A stretch of 6,981 nt of DNA from a virus. Taxonomy: Duplodnaviria; Heunggongvirae; Uroviricota; Caudoviricetes. Position 1 is the stretch's first letter; every line of letters starts with the position of its first letter. Under the pieces are notes generated by a model. That model was not told where the DNA came from. It did no database searches and saw nothing but the letters and a program-made list of their open reading frames with translations. The DNA lies in the IMG/VR virus record IMGVR_UViG_2648501669_000014, one strand, 5' to 3'. The translations under genes and the position numbers were made by a program. Below are positions 8-6,981 of this stretch, in pieces.

Positions 8-352
8 TTGACCACAACAATTAGCCTGATTCGAAACAAGCAATTCGATAAATCTGATGTGAAAATCGAGATGGTTTTCCTTAACCCCAACACGGGCAAG
101 GTTGAAACTACTTACCCTGTTTTCCGTGGGGTAGTCGATTCCATCGGTATTAACATCGAACATGAAGATGATGAGTGTAAAAACGAATCAGAATTTCAGC
201 TTAATAGTATCTGGGAAGTTCTAGATAAAAACGCTCGTAGTCATGCCTCCGATGGTATCCACCGATCCTATGTTGGAAACGAGAACGATCTATTCTTCTC
301 TCGTGCCGGGAAGTGGCAAAGCGAGTCGAAGTGGTTTAGCTCTAAGAAATAA
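8..352 (+). CDS. Hypothetical protein in the tail module (start uncertain: TTG 8, GTG 59 or ATG 71)
   Basis: Open frame ending TAA 350..352. All three + frames have stops within nt 1..24, so the gene starts inside the window. No clear SD before any candidate start. No HxH (JAB) or Cys cluster seen. Sits directly upstream of the K-like gene. Confidence 0.45.
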   Translation: MTTTISLIRNKQFDKSDVKIEMVFLNPNTGKVETTYPVFRGVVDSIGINIEHEDDECKNESEFQLNSIWEVLDKNARSHASDGIHRSYVGNENDLFFSRAGKWQSESKWFSSKK

Positions 353-398
353 TCCCTTCTCCCTAAGCCTAGTAAATAACAGCATGGAGGTATTCAAC

Positions 399-818
399 AT
401 GCTAAAAACTAGGCTTATCACCGATTACATCAATTCTTTAATAGGTCAGGAGTTCGTTCAAGGCGAGAATGATTGCAATCTCATTGCATGTAAGATCATC
501 GATATTCTCGCTGGTACTGACCTATATAATTCTCTTTATAAAAAATATTCAACTAAAGAAGAAGGCTTGAAAATCTGCAAAGAATTAAGCGGATATTCAA
601 ACATCCTTCAACCAATAAAGAAACATTTCAAATTAGTCACTGATGATTTACAGGACGGCGACTTACTGGTCACAGCCCACAAATTAGGAAACCGTAATTA
701 TTATTCCGTAGTTCCTCATTATTCCGGTTATGGCCTCGTTGAAGAAGATGGTATCTGGATGACCATTCCTGTTTCAGACATTGACTATGAACAAGTTTAT
801 AGATTCGGGGGTGAATAA
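399..818 (+). CDS. Tail assembly protein K-like NlpC/P60 (C40) cysteine peptidase, 139 aa
   Basis: ATG 399 lies 8 nt after GGAGG (386..390). The product has a D-C-N-L-I catalytic-Cys-like motif near the N-terminus and a later GDLLVTAH/VVPHY region consistent with the NlpC/P60 Cys...His...His order. Stop TAA 816..818 overlaps the next ATG (TAATG). Position before the J-like gene matches lambda K. No JAB/MPN motif present. Confidence 0.75.
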   Translation: MLKTRLITDYINSLIGQEFVQGENDCNLIACKIIDILAGTDLYNSLYKKYSTKEEGLKICKELSGYSNILQPIKKHFKLVTDDLQDGDLLVTAHKLGNRNYYSVVPHYSGYGLVEEDGIWMTIPVSDIDYEQVYRFGGE

Positions 819-3800
819 TGGGATTTGAAATATTGGTAGGCGCGGTGATCGCTGGTGCTTCGGCGGGGATGGCGGCAGCCGCAACATTTTCTGTTATGAC
901 CGCAGTCGCTATCGGTATGGCTGCTGGTGCAATGACCTTGATCGCTTCCACTGTAGGCGCACCAAAAACACCTAAAGTACAAAGCCCAGATAATGCGGTG
1001 ACACTAGGAACATCAAACGATCCGAAGACAGTATTACCCGTTCTTTTCGGTGTTACCCGTACTGGTACAAACTGCGTTTACAAAGCAATTTCTAAAAGAG
1101 AAAACAATAAGTTAGTGCAAATCTTCGCTGTAGCAGAGGGTGAAATCGACCACTACAAAGCACTGTTTATCGATAATAAAAATGTTCTTGTTGGTAAGAA
1201 CATGACGATCCGTGATGGCATTCTCGATAAGGGCAACATTAAAGAAGAATACCGGAAAGTGTTGGAGGTTGAGTTCCGCACGGGTAAGAATCCTAACACC
1301 GCTTTGTCACTGGCAAAACAGCATTTAGGCTCAGACTGGACCGATGCTTACAAGGGTAACGGCATTGCAACCATGTGTATTGTGTTACGTCGTGATGACA
1401 AATCTCTTGCTGCTGGTGTTGATATCCTTCAACCAAATAGCCAAGTGGCAGTCGATGTTATGGGCTTAAAGATTCGTAACCTTGAAACCAATGCTATTGA
1501 GGCTAGCACTAACGGCGTGGACCAGATTTTCCACTACCTAACAAATGAAAAATATGGCTTATCCGTACCAATTGAAAACATTAACGTTGATTCATTCCTG
1601 AAAGTACGTAAGCAAGTACGCCAGATGGATTTGCATTCAAACGGTGCATGTGATCCGAACGCCAGCTTTAAAGAGAACTTAACTAGCCTTATGCAGACTT
1701 TCGGCGGGGTGATGTTCGAATCCTTCGGAAGAATTACCCTGAAACTGGATGCTCCTGATATTGTTAAGCATACCTTCAATGAAGACAATATCATGATGGG
1801 TAAGGTATCACTGAAAACAGGTGGCACTAACGGTTATTTCAATACCATTAACGCGATGTATCAGGAACCATCAATTGACTATTCCGAGCAAATGCTACGT
1901 TATCCGGCTGATGCTGAAAACGATGCTACTATTCGTCAAGATGGTCGAATTATCGCTAAAGATATTGAATATCGTTTTGTTAAGTCTAAAGCCCAGATTG
2001 ATAAACTTGCGAGTGTAGAACGAAATAAATCTCGTATCACTCAGGTTATCAGCTTTATGACTACTGACGCATTCACTGCCGAAGTTTGGGACGTTATCAG
2101 CGTAACCTATGATGAATTGAAACTGAATAATTCACTTTGGCGTATTACCGCAATTGATCGTTCTATTGATTCTGGTATTGCTGGGATGATGACTATCACC
2201 GCTACAGAATATAATTCTCAGGTTTATACTGACCTGAACTATGCGGCAACTCCAGACAATAGACCAAGTGGTTTACCGGATTCAATGACAGTACAGAAGC
2301 CTACTAATTTCAGAATTAAGGCAACTGGCGAGACGATTTACGGTAAAAACGTTACTTTGACATGGGATGCACCGGAAGATTTTAACCGCTACGGCTTCCA
2401 GATTGATTACCGTGTAAGCGGATCACCTAACTGGATTAAGTTGGGACAGACTTCACAGCAAATTTTCAGTGTCAATGCACTGGCAAAAGATCGTTCCTAC
2501 GATTATCGAGTTTGTGCTTTCGGTATCATCGCGCGATCCGATTGGGTAGAACTGGTTAACCAGAATCCTACCGTTACCTATGAATTGCCGACTCCGGTTA
2601 TTCGAATCAAAAATCAGGGTAGCACGCCAGGAACTTTCGAAGGTAATGATCTGATTATCGAATGGGAAAACCAGCAACAATTAGATGTGATGATCAACGG
2701 TGAAACTAACAAGTTTAGTGACCTGTTTGAAGCATACATTATCAAGGTGACTAACAAGGCTGGTAAGTCTATTCAGTACCGTACCCGCGATCCTGAATCA
2801 TGGACTTATACGCTTGATATGAACCAGTTTAACGGCCTTTCGCGTCAACTGACGGTAGAAGTATCAGCTAAGGGCTATAACAACTCAGAGAGCGCCCCAG
2901 CGCGTTTAGTGGCTATCAACCCACAACATAAGCCAATGAAAGGTTTTAGTGCGCGTGGTGGCTTTAATACTGCGTTTGTTAGCTGGGCGGATGACGTAGA
3001 ACATGACTATGCAGGGTCAATCATCCAGTATGCAACCGACAACACTTTCTCAGATGCAAGGGCAGTAAGCACGAATAGTGTTAGCCATACTTCCTTTGAT
3101 ATTGCTGACGGTGATTATTATATCCGTGGTGCTCACTACGATATTTTCGGTATGGATGATGCTGTTTGGTCTGAACCGTATTTCATGCAAATGAAATCTA
3201 CCATTAGCTGGGACGATCAGGACAAAGAAGCACTGGAAGACCTGATTGGTTTACAAGATCGCTTAGATGAAACCATCGCTGATGCTATTGCTCAAGCTGG
3301 CGCTAATGCCGATGCTAAAATTGATGCAATGCATAAGCAAATCACTACCGAGACGGGTAAAACTGTTCAAGCCTCAGCCGATACCTTAAAGAGTCTGATT
3401 GCTTCTGGTGATAAGGCAAGTTCAACTAAGATTGATCAGGTTAAAGCTGAACTGAAAGGCGATATCACCAAAGAAGTTAGCGCCTCCGCTACAACCCTGA
3501 AACAAGCTATTGCTACCAGTGAAGCAGCAAGCGCAAGTAAGATTGACCAAGTTCGGGTAGAAATGGATGGCAAGATTGCTGGTGTGAATCAGGAAGCGGA
3601 CGTTAAGATCGATGCTTTGAAGGGAACCATTAACAGCAAATACAATCTAGCAGTTAATGCAGATGGTCGCGTGGCTGGCATTCACATGAGCGCAACTAAC
3701 GATCCGGCACAACCGACTAAAATCATCTTTACGGCTGATAAAATTGCTGTAGCTCCGCAGAACGGGACCGATGTTTGCCCGTTTGGTATCGAAGGTAACA

Positions 3801-4594
3801 AGGTTTATCTCGATAATGCGATGATTCGTAATGCCTCAATCGGATCAGCACAGATTACTGATGCTAGTATCACCACGGCTAAAATTGGCAATGCTGCGAT
3901 CAATTCAGCGAAAATCCAAGACGGCGCGATCACCAACGCCAAGATTGTAAATGGCGCAATTGATAACGCTAAAATCGGTAACTATATCCAGTCTTCCAAC
4001 TGGAACGGATCTACCGGATGGCATATCAATAAGAACGGTAGTGCTACGTTCATGAACGCTACCGTTAAAGGTAATATCACGGCTGATTCCGGTACTCTGA
4101 ACAACGTCACGATTAACTCTAGCTGTGTTATTAAGGGTATGCTTGAAGCTACTCAGGTTAAGGGTGATTTCGTTAAGGTGATTGGTCGTAAGTTCCCACA
4201 CCGTGATGTTAACGTTGATAATGGTTATGGTGGCTATCCGCAAGGTACAGTAACCGTTCGCGTTGAAGATGATCACAAGTTCGATCGTCAAATCGTTATT
4301 CCGGCAATTAGTTTTGGTGGATTGCGAGCGCGTGAAGGGTCGAACAATAATACCTATTACGACACCTGTCGCCTGATTGTTCGTAAGAATGGGTCAGAGT
4401 TGTATAATAGGGCGTATGGCGGTAATACTGGTCTTTACTCAGGTGTTATTGATATGCCAGCGGGTAAAGGTGCTGTGACCTTGACCTTTGAAGTGCAATC
4501 AAGCGCAATCAACAACTGGACGCCTAGCACATGGATCAGTGATTTAACTGTAATGGTAACTAAAAAAGCTACTACGGGTATTACTGTTTCTTAA
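818..4594 (+). CDS. Central tail fibre / host specificity protein, lambda gpJ family (1258 aa), with a gpI-C-terminal-like hydrophobic N-terminal module
   Basis: Uninterrupted 3777-nt ORF with GGGGG SD at 806..810. The C-terminal ~180 aa are colinear with my recollection of the lambda J C-terminus (SGTLNNVTI, DDHKFDRQIVIP, VIDMPAGKGAVTLTF, VMVTKK...GITVS versus lambda SGTLSNVTI, DDHPFDRQIVVLP, IVDMPAGRGNVILTF, VMVIKK...GISVV). Central FN3-like repeats (about 2260..3200). The first ~95 aa are a Gly/Ala-rich hydrophobic stretch ending in VLPVLFG, resembling the lambda gpI C-terminus (VLPVLYG). Confidence 0.93.
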   Translation: MGFEILVGAVIAGASAGMAAAATFSVMTAVAIGMAAGAMTLIASTVGAPKTPKVQSPDNAVTLGTSNDPKTVLPVLFGVTRTGTNCVYKAISKRENNKLVQIFAVAEGEIDHYKALFIDNKNVLVGKNMTIRDGILDKGNIKEEYRKVLEVEFRTGKNPNTALSLAKQHLGSDWTDAYKGNGIATMCIVLRRDDKSLAAGVDILQPNSQVAVDVMGLKIRNLETNAIEASTNGVDQIFHYLTNEKYGLSVPIENINVDSFLKVRKQVRQMDLHSNGACDPNASFKENLTSLMQTFGGVMFESFGRITLKLDAPDIVKHTFNEDNIMMGKVSLKTGGTNGYFNTINAMYQEPSIDYSEQMLRYPADAENDATIRQDGRIIAKDIEYRFVKSKAQIDKLASVERNKSRITQVISFMTTDAFTAEVWDVISVTYDELKLNNSLWRITAIDRSIDSGIAGMMTITATEYNSQVYTDLNYAATPDNRPSGLPDSMTVQKPTNFRIKATGETIYGKNVTLTWDAPEDFNRYGFQIDYRVSGSPNWIKLGQTSQQIFSVNALAKDRSYDYRVCAFGIIARSDWVELVNQNPTVTYELPTPVIRIKNQGSTPGTFEGNDLIIEWENQQQLDVMINGETNKFSDLFEAYIIKVTNKAGKSIQYRTRDPESWTYTLDMNQFNGLSRQLTVEVSAKGYNNSESAPARLVAINPQHKPMKGFSARGGFNTAFVSWADDVEHDYAGSIIQYATDNTFSDARAVSTNSVSHTSFDIADGDYYIRGAHYDIFGMDDAVWSEPYFMQMKSTISWDDQDKEALEDLIGLQDRLDETIADAIAQAGANADAKIDAMHKQITTETGKTVQASADTLKSLIASGDKASSTKIDQVKAELKGDITKEVSASATTLKQAIATSEAASASKIDQVRVEMDGKIAGVNQEADVKIDALKGTINSKYNLAVNADGRVAGIHMSATNDPAQPTKIIFTADKIAVAPQNGTDVCPFGIEGNKVYLDNAMIRNASIGSAQITDASITTAKIGNAAINSAKIQDGAITNAKIVNGAIDNAKIGNYIQSSNWNGSTGWHINKNGSATFMNATVKGNITADSGTLNNVTINSSCVIKGMLEATQVKGDFVKVIGRKFPHRDVNVDNGYGGYPQGTVTVRVEDDHKFDRQIVIPAISFGGLRAREGSNNNTYYDTCRLIVRKNGSELYNRAYGGNTGLYSGVIDMPAGKGAVTLTFEVQSSAINNWTPSTWISDLTVMVTKKATTGITVS
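3301..3625 (+). repeat. Imperfect periodic repeats (about 111-114 nt, 37-38 aa) encoding a KID-x-[VA] motif-bearing, Ala/Ser/Thr/Lys-rich, probably helical segment of the J-like protein
   Basis: AKIDAM (about 3313), TKIDQV (about 3428), SKIDQV (about 3539) and VKIDAL (about 3604) recur with similar flanking ...SA.TLK..IA.S context. The DNA pair actaagattgatcaggtt / agtaagattgaccaagtt is visible directly. Confidence 0.6.
3818..3982 (+). repeat. In-frame tandem 30-nt repeats (5-6 copies) encoding a 10-aa unit A-K-I-x-[ND]-[AG]-A-I-x-x inside the J-like gene
   Basis: Translation reads ...AMIRNASIGS AQITDASITT AKIGNAAINS AKIQDGAITN AKIVNGAIDN AKIGNY... with codon boundaries at 3818, 3848, 3878, 3908, 3938, 3968. 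Confidence 0.85.
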
Positions 4595-4612
4595 AAATTT
4601 AATTTTAATAAT

Positions 4613-4655
4613 TAATCCCGCTTAATTCTTTTGAGTTAGGCGGGATTATTTTTAT
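4613..4655 (+). terminator. Rho-independent terminator downstream of the J-like gene
   Basis: taatcccgc (4613..4621) pairs with gcgggatta (4640..4648); the stem extends by U-G/A-T pairs to about 13 bp with a roughly 10-nt loop. Followed by TTTTTAT (4649..4655). Lies 19 nt after the J stop. Confidence 0.8.
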
Positions 4656-4698
4656 CTAAATAATTCTGCCATGAAATTATAAAAATATCGGGGGCGTA

Positions 4699-4977
4699 AT
4701 GACTGAAATTATATATGGCGGTATCGGTGTTATCGCCTTAATTTGCGGTGGTCTTTGGAGACTTCACCGAAATCAATTAGCAACTGAAAATAGGTTATCT
4801 AAATTGGAATCCAGCGACGCATTGTTAAACCAGAAGTTTGAGACGATGCAGAATAACCATACTCAGATTGCTGAACGTGTTTACCAAATGGAACAAACAC
4901 TACACGGTATAGAGAAGAAAGTGGTTGCGATGGATGCTAAATTTGACCAAGTTCTCGACATACTCAAACAAAAATAA
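4699..4977 (+). CDS. Small membrane-anchored protein, 92 aa: N-terminal TM helix plus C-terminal predicted coiled coil; function unknown
   Basis: ATG 4699 is preceded by GGGGG (4690..4694). Residues 4-20 (IIYGGIGVIALICGGLW) are hydrophobic and followed by RLHR, which by the positive-inside rule puts the C-terminus in the cytoplasm. The remainder is heptad-like and charged (LSKLESSDALLNQKFETMQ...). Confidence 0.7.
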   Translation: MTEIIYGGIGVIALICGGLWRLHRNQLATENRLSKLESSDALLNQKFETMQNNHTQIAERVYQMEQTLHGIEKKVVAMDAKFDQVLDILKQK

Positions 4978-4995
4978 TAATAAAGGGGTGAATAT

Positions 4996-5166
4996 ATGAA
5001 GAATAAACTTAAGAAATATTTTGGTTATCTCTTGATTGTCGCCCTCACTTATAACGTAGCTATTAGACCTCTGCTAACGTCCTTTGGGCTTGAACTCCCG
5101 GCTATGACCGTGGATGAACAATTGCTAAGGACACTGGCGGGGGTCTTTTCGTTATTAGGGGGCTAA
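4996..5166 (+). CDS. Small hydrophobic protein, 56 aa (not in the supplied ORF track); function unknown
   Basis: ATG 4996 lies 7 nt after AAAGGGG (4982..4988). My translation is MKNKLKKYFGYLLIVALTYNVAIRPLLTSFGLELPAMTVDEQLLRTLAGVFSLLGG, ending TAA 5164..5166. Basic N-terminus then a hydrophobic helix; no Cys, so not a lipoprotein. Stop is 1 nt before the next ATG. Confidence 0.5.
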   Translation: MKNKLKKYFGYLLIVALTYNVAIRPLLTSFGLELPAMTVDEQLLRTLAGVFSLLGG

Positions 5167-5167
5167 C

Positions 5168-5851
5168 ATGGCAACCAGTACCAATAAACGAAACGCTCTA
5201 AGGACTAAGAAAGCGTTACGGCAATGGTCTGAAAAGGCAACCGATACATTCGAAAGGGCACTAGGGGAAGGGGCGATCTTTGCTTCCAGAGCACTCCAGA
5301 AGAAGATTAACAAGAATGTTGATAGACCTACTCGATGGACTCAACAAGCTGTAGGTAATACCAACTACAAGAACCGATCAGGGACGAGACACCAAATCTT
5401 CATCAAGGGCGCAAGGGATAAGGACAAGAAGATCGGCAGTCAGGATGACTATCTGAAACACTATTTCGATGGTGGCAAAATCAATAAGCTAGTGCCAATC
5501 GCTAACGGTAAGGTCTTAGACGCCCACGGGAACATTAAGGCCATCAAAGGCGGTAAGATGATGCGTAACATCGAAAACGGCAACTTCATCAAGGTAGAAA
5601 ACAAGGAAGGAACTTTTATCATGAAGAAGTACAAGCCTAAGAAATCCCGAACCAAACGCGCTAGGAATGGATCGGCGGTGGCAAAACGTCGCTTAGAGAA
5701 ACGCATCCAGAAACAGAGTAAGCGAATTGTTGCCGTTAAGTCGGATAAAATTTCTACTCGTTATTCGACGCTAGGATCGTGGGAAAGCAACGAGGAAATG
5801 ATGCTTAAGAACATTAATAAGCACATTAAATCGCGCATGAGATACGTTTAA
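5168..5851 (+). CDS. Highly basic Lys/Arg-rich protein, 227 aa; function unknown (candidate nucleic-acid-binding or injected protein)
   Basis: ATG 5168 is preceded by GGGGG (5157..5161). Hand count is about 36 K and 21 R against about 19 D+E, so strongly net positive. No motif I recognise. The antisense ORF 5461..5706 is rejected. Confidence 0.75.
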   Translation: MATSTNKRNALRTKKALRQWSEKATDTFERALGEGAIFASRALQKKINKNVDRPTRWTQQAVGNTNYKNRSGTRHQIFIKGARDKDKKIGSQDDYLKHYFDGGKINKLVPIANGKVLDAHGNIKAIKGGKMMRNIENGNFIKVENKEGTFIMKKYKPKKSRTKRARNGSAVAKRRLEKRIQKQSKRIVAVKSDKISTRYSTLGSWESNEEMMLKNINKHIKSRMRYV

Positions 5852-5861
5852 TCCATAAATA

Positions 5862-5883
5862 CCCTCATAGAATCTTATGGGGG
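5862..5883 (+). promoter_or_regulatory. Intergenic stem-loop that pairs with the SD of the 5890 gene (possible translational control or RNA-stability element)
   Basis: ccctcata (5862..5869) pairs with tatggggg (5876..5883), 8 bp including one U-G, loop gaatct. The right arm contains the GGGGG SD (5879..5883) 6 nt before ATG 5890. No U-tract follows, so it is not a typical terminator. Confidence 0.35.
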
Positions 5884-5889
5884 TATAAC

Positions 5890-6237
5890 ATGGCTAAAAA
5901 TATTTTCACTGAATTTCCTACTTATCCGGTCGATCAGCTTTCCGGTATTTTTATTAATGGCATTAGTCCAGAATCAATGACTTATGATTTTGAGGCGAAG
6001 AGAGTTAAACATAAACAATATAAAGAATGTATCCGCGATCATGAAAAAGGGACCGTGTTTTGTGTCGCTACATTGGCTAAACGTCCTAAGTATCGTTTTC
6101 GTGTCGGGCAAGAAGTCGATGTAGTTAATCCTTATAGTTTTAACTGTCTGGGTGATGCACGCGCGGTGTGTGTAGGCACAACTAATTACTACATTAAAGG
6201 ACTCAGATTTACCGGGTATATAATGGAATACATCTAA
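5890..6237 (+). CDS. Hypothetical protein, 115 aa; function unknown
   Basis: ATG 5890 with GGGGG SD. Last gene before the second terminator. The overlapping antisense ORF 5974..6318 lacks supporting signals. Confidence 0.65.
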   Translation: MAKNIFTEFPTYPVDQLSGIFINGISPESMTYDFEAKRVKHKQYKECIRDHEKGTVFCVATLAKRPKYRFRVGQEVDVVNPYSFNCLGDARAVCVGTTNYYIKGLRFTGYIMEYI

Positions 6238-6251
6238 CTCTAATAAATACG

Positions 6252-6280
6252 AGCGACCAATTTCGGTCGCTTTTTTATTT
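6252..6280 (+). terminator. Rho-independent terminator after the four-gene cassette
   Basis: agcgacc (6252..6258) pairs with ggtcgct (6265..6271), 7-bp GC-rich stem with a 6-nt loop, followed by TTTTTTATTT (to 6280). It abuts the GGAGG SD (6281..6285) of the next gene. Confidence 0.8.
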
Positions 6281-6289
6281 GGAGGAATC

Positions 6290-6739
6290 ATGGAGATTTT
6301 ATTTGCTGAATATATCAACTACACCGGATTTACAAGAAAAACGCCTCTTGACTATGAACCTATTGCCATTAAACGTTGTGATGAGTTGGGGTACATCTAT
6401 AACGGTTTTGTTGTGCCGTGGAAAGGGCAACATACACCCGTTTCTATAACCTGCAAGAAACATAGCACAACGCGAACAATTGCTTTCAAAACTCTTAAAA
6501 AACAAGGTGCGTGTCTTGAATGCTATAAAGAATCATTAAAACTTCCTAAGAAAAAGAATAGAGATAAGGAAGCTGTATTAGATAAAGCAAGCAATGTGCT
6601 GGAACGCAAAGATATGGTTTTAGTTGGATTGTTAGAAGATTATAAAGGATTAGACACAAAAGTTTCTTATAAGTGCAATTGCTGTGATACTGCATACGAA
6701 ACCATAATCACTAGAATCATAAACGATGATGCTGGGTAG
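6290..6739 (+). CDS. Cys-rich protein with two tandem zinc-ribbon-like modules (at least 149 aa); 3' end interrupted by IS2, likely C-terminally truncated
   Basis: ATG 6290 lies 5 nt after GGAGG. Contains C-x2-H-x16-C-x2-C (CKKH...CLEC) and a second related module (VSITC... / VSYKCNCC...). The terminal TAG (6737..6739) is the first 3 nt of the IS2 left end, so the native C-terminus is missing. Confidence 0.7.
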   Translation: MEILFAEYINYTGFTRKTPLDYEPIAIKRCDELGYIYNGFVVPWKGQHTPVSITCKKHSTTRTIAFKTLKKQGACLECYKESLKLPKKKNRDKEAVLDKASNVLERKDMVLVGLLEDYKGLDTKVSYKCNCCDTAYETIITRIINDDAG

Positions 6740-6981
6740 ACTGGCCCCCTGAATCTCCAGACAACCAGTATCACTTAAATAAGTGATAGTCTTAATACTA
6801 GTTTTTAGACTAGTCATTGGAGAACAGATGATTGATGTCTTAGGGCCGGAGAAACGCAGACGGCGTACCACACAGGAAAAGATCGCAATTGTTCAGCAGA
6901 GCTTTGAACCGGGGATGACGGTCTCCCTCGTTGCCCGGCAACATGGTGTAGCAGCCAGCCAGTTAAGTCGCTGGCCTACAC
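6737..6981 (+). mobile_element. IS2 (IS3 family) insertion sequence, left end; continues beyond the window
   Basis: Sequence from 6737 (TAGACTGGCCCCCTGAATCTCCAGACAACCAGTATCACTTAAATAAGTGATAGTC...) matches my recollection of the IS2 left terminus and leader. It is followed by the insC start. The left terminal inverted repeat is about the first 41 bp (6737..6777). Confidence 0.9.
6828..6981 (+). CDS. insC: IS2 transposase OrfA (InsC), 5' portion; 3' end outside the window
   Basis: Translation [46 protein letters not shown]... matches remembered IS2 InsC. ATG 6828 is preceded by GGAGAA. Confidence 0.9.

Follow-up and report, generated by a model that had tools for sequence, protein, structure and literature searches.

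The central tail fibre gene of an Escherichia coli prophage carries an array of 12 five-residue repeats (pentads), or six ten-residue units (decapeptides), that probably forms a rigid β-structured spacer of fixed length in a trimeric central straight fibre, held by selection on the protein and stable in copy number. The array is an old structural repeat at the protein level, and shows no sign of current gain or loss of copies in the DNA. It lies in a stretch of 6,981 nucleotides that was analysed as a whole (the window).

The chromosome of E. coli strain HCP5S3_I4 matches the window with 100% identity over bases 20-6736, and the last 240 bases of the window are IS2. Of 5426 complete E. coli genomes, 57 contain DNA related to the window, in every case on the chromosome. 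Plasmids contain no DNA similar to the window, and at the DNA level phage records match its IS2 end only. In the HCP5S3_I4 genome (record NZ_CM149869), a tape measure gene, two small hypothetical genes and a DUF6950 gene precede the array-bearing open reading frame (ORF). This region is a siphovirus-type tail module, and the position of the ORF after the tape-measure and tail-assembly genes fits a lambda-J type. The prophage in this record is riddled with IS2, IS1 and IS5. The features of the gene are as follows.

818..4594, + strand: lambda-J-type tail-tip or central tail fibre (host specificity) protein of an E. coli prophage, an ORF of 1258 amino acids, assigned by Pfam, PHROG, PDB phmmer and gene order.
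3301..3625, + strand: second repeat, of 37-residue (111-nt) period and about three copies, in the α-helical shaft (lag-37 score and AF2 helix).
3608..3802, + strand: upstream part of the central straight fibre, homologous to the lambda gpJ β-prism (residues 931-995; Pfam Phage_Tail_Tip and gpJ alignment).
3803..3982, + strand: repeat array of 12 pentads or six decapeptides (residues 996-1055).
3983..4051, + strand: conserved cap YIQSSNWNGSTGWHINKNGSATF that ends the array in all relatives (consensus xIQSxN[WFY]..G..GWxIxKxGxAEF).
4187..4591, + strand: Ig-like C-terminal receptor-binding domain (residues 1124-1258; Pfam Ig_GpJ_C).

The Pfam family Phage_Tail_Tip (DUF1983) matches residues 931-1028 and a second stretch with 74.9 bits against a cut-off of 22, and Ig_GpJ_C matches residues 1124-1258 with 117.2 bits against a cut-off of 26.2 (E = 7.4e-34); the N-terminal hub family Phage-tail_3 scores 19.8 bits, with a cut-off of 23. 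PHROG tail-fibre families span residues 20-785. Among PDB entries, phmmer matches lambda gpJ (8IYK, 8XCJ), the best match being 'A8 gpJ 713' (9WCA, E = 7.4e-54). Taken together, the Pfam, PHROG and PDB gpJ matches identify a lambda-J-type tail-tip or central fibre protein and not a side fibre, and the Pfam and gpJ matches bear out the original prediction that this in-frame repeat belongs to a tail fibre gene. The NCBIfam model lambda_TipJ matches residues 1068-1258 only, and its 205 bits lie so far below the cut-off of 1950 that this protein and lambda J itself are not equivalogs.

Lambda gpJ comprises hub domains, two FNIII domains, an α-helical shaft, a β-sheet prism (the central straight fibre) and a receptor-binding domain (PMC11101478). 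The window protein shares the order of shaft, prism and Ig-like receptor-binding domain with lambda gpJ (8XCK/8XCJ/8IYK) and with the A8 gpJ chimera (9WCA/9WCB), but has 12 pentads where these have two to three degenerate ones (IFMND VFLKR LTAPT). When the protein is aligned to lambda and A8 gpJ, residues 951-1006 and 1067-1258 pair and residues 1007-1066 are skipped. Because the flanks of the array align to prism residues of lambda, the array belongs to the prism and lies about 68 residues above the Ig-like tip. It was thus rightly placed upstream of the receptor-binding domain, although it does not directly adjoin it: the array ends at residue 1055 and Ig_GpJ_C starts at 1124. The Ig-like tip probably binds OmpC, judging by its nearness to A8 gpJ; in the A8 chimera, which delivers through OmpC, the C-terminal part derives from a naturally occurring gpJ variant of an E. 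coli phage (PMC11338833).

Read in frame, the array is VYLDN AMIRN ASIGS AQITD ASITT AKIGN AAINS AKIQD GAITN AKIVN GAIDN AKIGN, followed by YIQSS NWNGSTGWHI at the start of the cap. Twelve pentads of the pattern [AG]-x-I-x-x run in phase over bases 3803-3982, and their decapeptide consensus is A-K-I-x-[DN]-[AG]-A-I-x-[TNS]. The array itself is where it had been described, but its proposed start at 3818 is one pentad (15 nt) too late, the first pentad being VYLDN at 3803. Over bases 3818-3982 the DNA self-identity is 0.427 at a lag of 15, 0.548 at a lag of 30 and 0.590 at a lag of 60, with other lags at about 0.27. This is the strongest periodicity in the ORF, in which no other 165-nt stretch exceeds 0.46 at any lag. 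A chance or compositional origin, for which only the Ala/Ile/Asn-rich composition speaks, is scarcely credible: shuffling the codons of 3818-3982 gives 0.309 +/- 0.040 at lag 30, none of 20,000 shuffles reaches the observed identity at lag 30 or lag 60, and the motif is shared by thousands of proteins (8643 cluster representatives at E <= 0.001, see below). The periodic array is therefore real, in register and beyond chance. RNA folding of the array is no better than that of shuffles (z = +0.51), an Rfam scan of the window gives no match, and no family match was found for the antisense ORF at 3905-4291.

In the window array the pentad is obvious and the alternation between the two pentads of a decapeptide is weaker. 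The unit becomes clear in long arrays of the wider family, of which we compiled 242 with at least 20 pentads each from 133 proteins. Their mean amino acid identity is 0.18 at a lag of five residues, 0.445 at 10, 0.48 at 20 and 0.457 at 30, and their consensus is A-K-I-A-D-[AGL]-A-[VI]-T-[TNS]. The much higher identity at lag 10 than at lag 5 indicates that the decapeptide is the true unit of the wider family, in agreement with the 30-nt, ten-residue unit first proposed. The window array is a stable six-unit example of this decapeptide repeat.

The repeat had been called perfectly phased, which holds for its register and not for the sequence of its units: these are 27-80% identical in nucleotides, and the longest exact direct repeat within the array is 8 nt. 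Where different units have identical residues, their codons agree in 46 cases, fewer than the 54 that the codon usage of the gene predicts, and Tandem Repeats Finder reports nothing at the array even at its lowest threshold (score 30). The likeness between units in DNA is that imposed by the protein motif and no more. Copies that diverged so long ago in DNA imply that the copy number of the array is stable.

Close relatives agree with this. A query with bases 3650-4150 finds 55 near-full-length matches in E. coli genomes, at 100% to 75.5% identity, and among the 43 of these matches listed the stretch has the length of the query in all except three rows, which are 3 nt longer because they carry an extra codon after 3765, outside the array. 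In an alignment of seven alleles (L001, L010-L014 and the window itself) the array is free of indels and always has 12 pentads. The same count of 12 is found in five proteins of 73-91% identity (P0001-P0005), in a different J-like gene of E. coli 2021CK-01361 (L002), in six representatives of 50% clusters (P0122, P0140, P0149, P0185, P0206 and P0223), in the phage record DCP80 and in seven IMG/VR loci.

These observations bear on the idea that the array is an in-frame tandem DNA repeat, prone to slippage or recombination, that now produces variants of fibre length. In keeping with it, the repeat keeps both frame and register, distant lineages differ in array length, and one distant array of 28 pentads (L074) can still be recognised in its DNA as a tandem repeat (periods of 30 nt and 120 nt, 72-77% matches), a tandem duplication that shows a way in which such arrays grow. 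Against it, the window array offers no substrate for slippage by any of the four DNA measures above, and there is not one length variant among the 43 listed E. coli genomes, the seven alleles or the more distant 12-pentad relatives. Comparison of copy number had been set beforehand as the refuting test, and the count proved identical in all close homologues checked, down to about 75% DNA identity. Present-day expansion and contraction of this array is accordingly very improbable.

The picture differs over deep time. We counted pentads in distant relatives backwards from the conserved cap. HK97 J, T1 gp33, the F2-pyocin protein PyoF10, PDB entry 23gd_D, PSA28, EC151 and Smarc4 have four pentads, PMBT28 has six, P0270 has eight, as does SU10 gp18 before a different cap, and other distant proteins have 22 to 64. 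Among 65 countable IMG/VR loci, 44 have four pentads, ten have six and seven have 12, with one locus each at 10, 11, 14 and 28; the count is even in 64 of the 65 and odd in one. Array length therefore differs between distant lineages almost always by whole decapeptides, and four pentads is the commonest form. The proposal that fibre length changes in in-frame units thus stands over deep time (4, 6, 8, 10, 12, 14 and 22 up to 64 pentads) and fails among close relatives.

The four-pentad proteins also indicate where the window array comes from. HK97 J, T1 gp33, PyoF10 and 23gd_D share the pentads, the cap and the Phage_Tail_Tip domain with the window protein (for example, TFIRA SFIQD GTIEN AKIGN followed by YIQSNNY..GW), but have four pentads to its 12. 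The four-pentad element falls within the Pfam Phage_Tail_Tip profile, at about positions 78-101, and the cap aligns with about positions 100-123. Since this element is already part of the family profile and counts vary across relatives, the window array is, by sequence comparison, an expanded form (eight additional pentads) of an element present in most J-like proteins.

Length polymorphism does occur near the array, in the helical shaft and not in the array itself: in allele L010 a deletion of 99 nt (3368-3466) falls within the second repeat. A second, longer-period repeat had been noticed at 3301-3625, and it is real, with a period of 37 residues (111 nt), about three copies and a lag-37 BLOSUM mean of 1.03 (the maxima of shuffles average 0.06 +/- 0.11). 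It is covered by a long helix at residues 883-934 in the AF2 monomer model (mean pLDDT of 71-92 over ten-residue blocks).

Published multimer predictions of relatives suggest the fold of the array. The regions homologous to it in SU10 gp18 (PMC9509320), T1 gp33 (PMC11945409) and PyoF10 (PMC13455828) are each predicted to form a trimeric β-prism or β-helix. The pentad region of T1 and PyoF10 has no cryo-EM resolution. The SU10 tail needle (gp18, 7Z4B chain EA) has eight like pentads and a C-terminal domain modelled as a trimeric β-prism; unlike the window protein it is a podophage needle and not a siphophage tip, its cap is LSADKITAG, and its model comes from AlphaFold2-multimer and was fitted to a 15 Å map. 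Searches of PDB sequences yielded short or unresolved versions of the array and weak matches to pentapeptide-repeat proteins, but no structure that contains a long one. Our AF2 monomer model, made from an alignment of 31 sequences, has a mean pLDDT of 66, with values of 45-52 and no reliable fold over the array; its nearest structures by Foldseek are the central fibres of A8 and lambda gpJ.

We infer from these relatives that the array adopts a trimeric β-prism fold. Each decapeptide would contribute two short β-strand pentads, with small or aliphatic residues at the first and third positions of the pentad, and the decapeptides would add to the trimeric fibre a stretch flanked by the α-helical shaft and by the lower prism, which bears the Ig-like tip. 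The length of the array would then set how far the receptor-binding domain projects; by a rough estimate that assumes about 4.8 Å per strand layer, the rod would gain a few nanometres, about 3 to 6 nm (decapeptide versus pentad per face). In lambda, binding to LamB sends a twist up the prism and the shaft refolds (PMC11101478). Once the receptor is bound, the array would have to relay a comparable twist signal from the tip up the prism. The spacer and signalling roles are both drawn by analogy from lambda, which has only two to three degenerate pentads. Selection on the protein would maintain the repeat while its DNA copies, diverged long ago, drift, and changes in length would be rare, would involve whole decapeptides and would fall on the time scale of phage lineages. 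One feature counts against this explanation: a triple β-helix with one pentad per face cannot alone explain the strict alternation of two pentads.

An alternative is a spacer of a different fold, in which each chain would form its own right-handed, four-sided β-helix of the Rfr type, with four pentads to a coil, so that 12 pentads make three coils and three solenoids lie side by side. Pentapeptide-repeat proteins of this fold (Np275/Np276 and the designed beta1 series) resemble the array in their five-residue period, with a small residue at i-2 and an aliphatic one at i, and the A-x-[IL]-x-x spacing agrees with their consensus. Designed and natural members are aligned to the array by phmmer at E = 5e-5, and to a long array at E = 1e-12, and long arrays in relatives pass the Pfam Pentapeptide_4 cut-off. 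The slight excess of identity at lag 20 over lags 10 and 30 in long arrays, like that of lag 60 over lag 30 in the window DNA, is also what a four-pentad coil would give. Yet the window protein itself stays far below the Pentapeptide_4 cut-off, with 12 bits where 38 are required (PF00805 / PF13599 test; E = 0.23), and the array departs from pentapeptide-repeat proteins in its decapeptide alternation, its trimeric-fibre setting, its lack of [DN] at i-1 and its central residue, which is Ile or Val in place of their Leu or Phe. Genuine pentapeptide-repeat proteins are usually modelled with confidence by AF2, whereas confidence over the array is low, and the published multimer predictions of relatives are of a trimeric prism. 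Counts of 4, 8 and 12 correspond to whole coils, but 6, 10, 14, 22, 26, 30 and 34 do not, which rules out multiples of four as the rule of pentad number. We therefore regard independent Rfr-type solenoids as unlikely and prefer the trimeric prism.

A further possible role, compatible with that of a trimeric spacer, is that the array is a patch of homology at which J genes recombine and so swap receptor-binding ends between prophages. In E. coli strain H2 (L013) the flanks are 98-99% identical to the window, yet 34 of the 55 differences over 1545 nt fall in 3835-3976, where about 5 are expected. These 34 nucleotide differences cause only four amino acid changes; the patch is a short piece from a diverged allele, and the motif is under strong purifying selection. 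Two other alleles (L011 and L001) fall from about 92% to about 70% identity from the middle of the array (about 3889) onwards, and the J-like gene L002 has DNA in common with the window only at 3796-3953. Breakpoints also lie outside the array, however, with L010 and L014 diverging from about 4200; the alignment comprises seven alleles only, and mosaicism of tail fibre genes is common throughout phages. The conserved array may thus also be a junction for exchange of the receptor-binding end, but with seven alleles this is only a lead, and one we consider possible rather than probable.

The motif extends well beyond J-like proteins. An exhaustive search with residues 931-1123 retrieves 8643 cluster representatives at E <= 0.001, the top matches being proteins of up to 4696 amino acids in which arrays are numerous and some runs exceed 60 pentads. 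Of six top long-array proteins scanned against Pfam, three have N-terminal Prophage_tail (Tal-type) domains and four reach the Pentapeptide_4 cut-off. Tal-type proteins such as P0131, P0123 and P0147 have the same decapeptide consensus as the wider family of the window array, but differ from the window protein in having 20 to more than 60 pentads, often in several arrays each, in lengths of up to 4696 amino acids and in belonging to another N-terminal hub family. The consensus array matches no Pfam family above its cut-off; Phage_Tail_Tip, Pentapeptide_4 and Decapeptide come closest, none of them exceeding its cut-off. Literature searches on pentapeptide or decapeptide repeats in phage fibres yielded nothing on the motif. 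We tentatively raise the idea, in which we have little confidence as yet, that the decapeptide defines a distinct and structurally uncharacterised class of fibre-building β-repeat, serving as a spacer in thousands of phage tail-tip and Tal proteins and changing only in whole decapeptides, from 4 to 64 or more pentads.

The J-like tail-tip gene of the window is an ordinary one, encoding a longer rod than lambda has, and its array is no hot spot of variation. What is new here is the 12-pentad form of a motif already known in J-like tail-tip proteins; mildly novel is that the class of decapeptide repeats is widespread, changes in whole decapeptides and is without a solved structure. The length of the array, which varies in ten-residue steps, is a trait of central tail fibres that is simple to count. 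It could be correlated with the thickness of the host surface, and could inform the engineering of gpJ chimeras such as the OmpC-targeting A8.

Length polymorphism is seen in the helical shaft of the J-like tail-tip protein, and not in its decapeptide array. One allele, from E. coli 266917_2, has a 99-nt (33-codon) in-frame deletion relative to the window (3368–3466) that falls within the 37-aa-period helical repeat. Differences between the E. coli H2 allele and the window are clustered in a short patch within the array (3835–3976) and are mostly synonymous; the two sequences are otherwise 98–99% identical. Alleles L001 and L011 show an abrupt drop in identity to the window from about 3889, in mid-array, onward. 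Together, the patch and the drop suggest that there are recombination junctions inside the array.

Among the cluster representatives carrying the same decapeptide motif (P0121–P0270), uninterrupted runs of at least 60 pentads are found in very large proteins, for example P0164 (residues 351–650), P0131 (residues 359–668) and P0208. Prophage_tail N-terminal domains are present in three of the six proteins of this set that were scanned against Pfam, and the number of pentads, counted from the conserved cap, is almost always even across the set. A J-like siphovirus-type tail-tip gene with a 12-pentad array also occurs in the record of Escherichia phage DCP80 (PQ671644.1, 1229–4987), the protein sharing 55% identity over residues 931–1119 of the window protein. 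This 141-kb record is classified as Straboviridae/Tevenvirinae. Such a gene is odd in a T4-like phage, and the record may be a chimeric assembly or have a misassigned taxonomy.

The nuclease genes directly downstream of the tail-tip gene differ between alleles, as surveyed in L001, L002 (a different J-like gene, from E. coli 2021CK-01361), the window and E. coli genomes with window-related DNA. They include GIY-YIG, NUMOD3, endonuclease-domain and HNH-like (PHROG match) kinds, and genes of the homing-endonuclease type seem to use this position as a landing site. The features of this region and of the NZ_CM149869 prophage (L003) are as follows.

L001, 5984–6501: nuclease gene downstream of the J-like gene
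L002, 5024–5500: nuclease gene downstream of the J-like gene
Window, 6290–6739: HNH-like PHROG match downstream of the tail-tip gene
Window, 6737–6978 (window end): IS2, 95–99% identical to IS2 copies in phage records
L003, 2568–3796, 23166–24394, 27609–28306 and 28985–29965: IS-bearing spans
L003, 7460–12276: genes for a 'tail fiber domain-containing protein' (3.6 kb) and a 'receptor recognizing protein Gp38', with the head genes on one side and the tape-measure gene on the other

The open reading frame from window 6290 has CapR-homology and endonuclease-like matches, and is apparently truncated by IS2 at the window end. In NZ_CM149869 the same prophage has a further IS2 adjoining the capsid gene, as well as IS1 and IS5; given these insertions (two of IS2), it is probably defective in that strain.

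The tail fiber and Gp38 pair in L003 would amount to an adhesin of T-even type carried by a siphovirus-type prophage. For the window receptor-binding domain (4187–4591), the nearest relative with a known structure is the A8 gpJ chimera, which was solved bound to OmpC of E. coli EDL933 (9WCB). By analogy with this complex, the receptor of the prophage tip is probably OmpC or a related porin.
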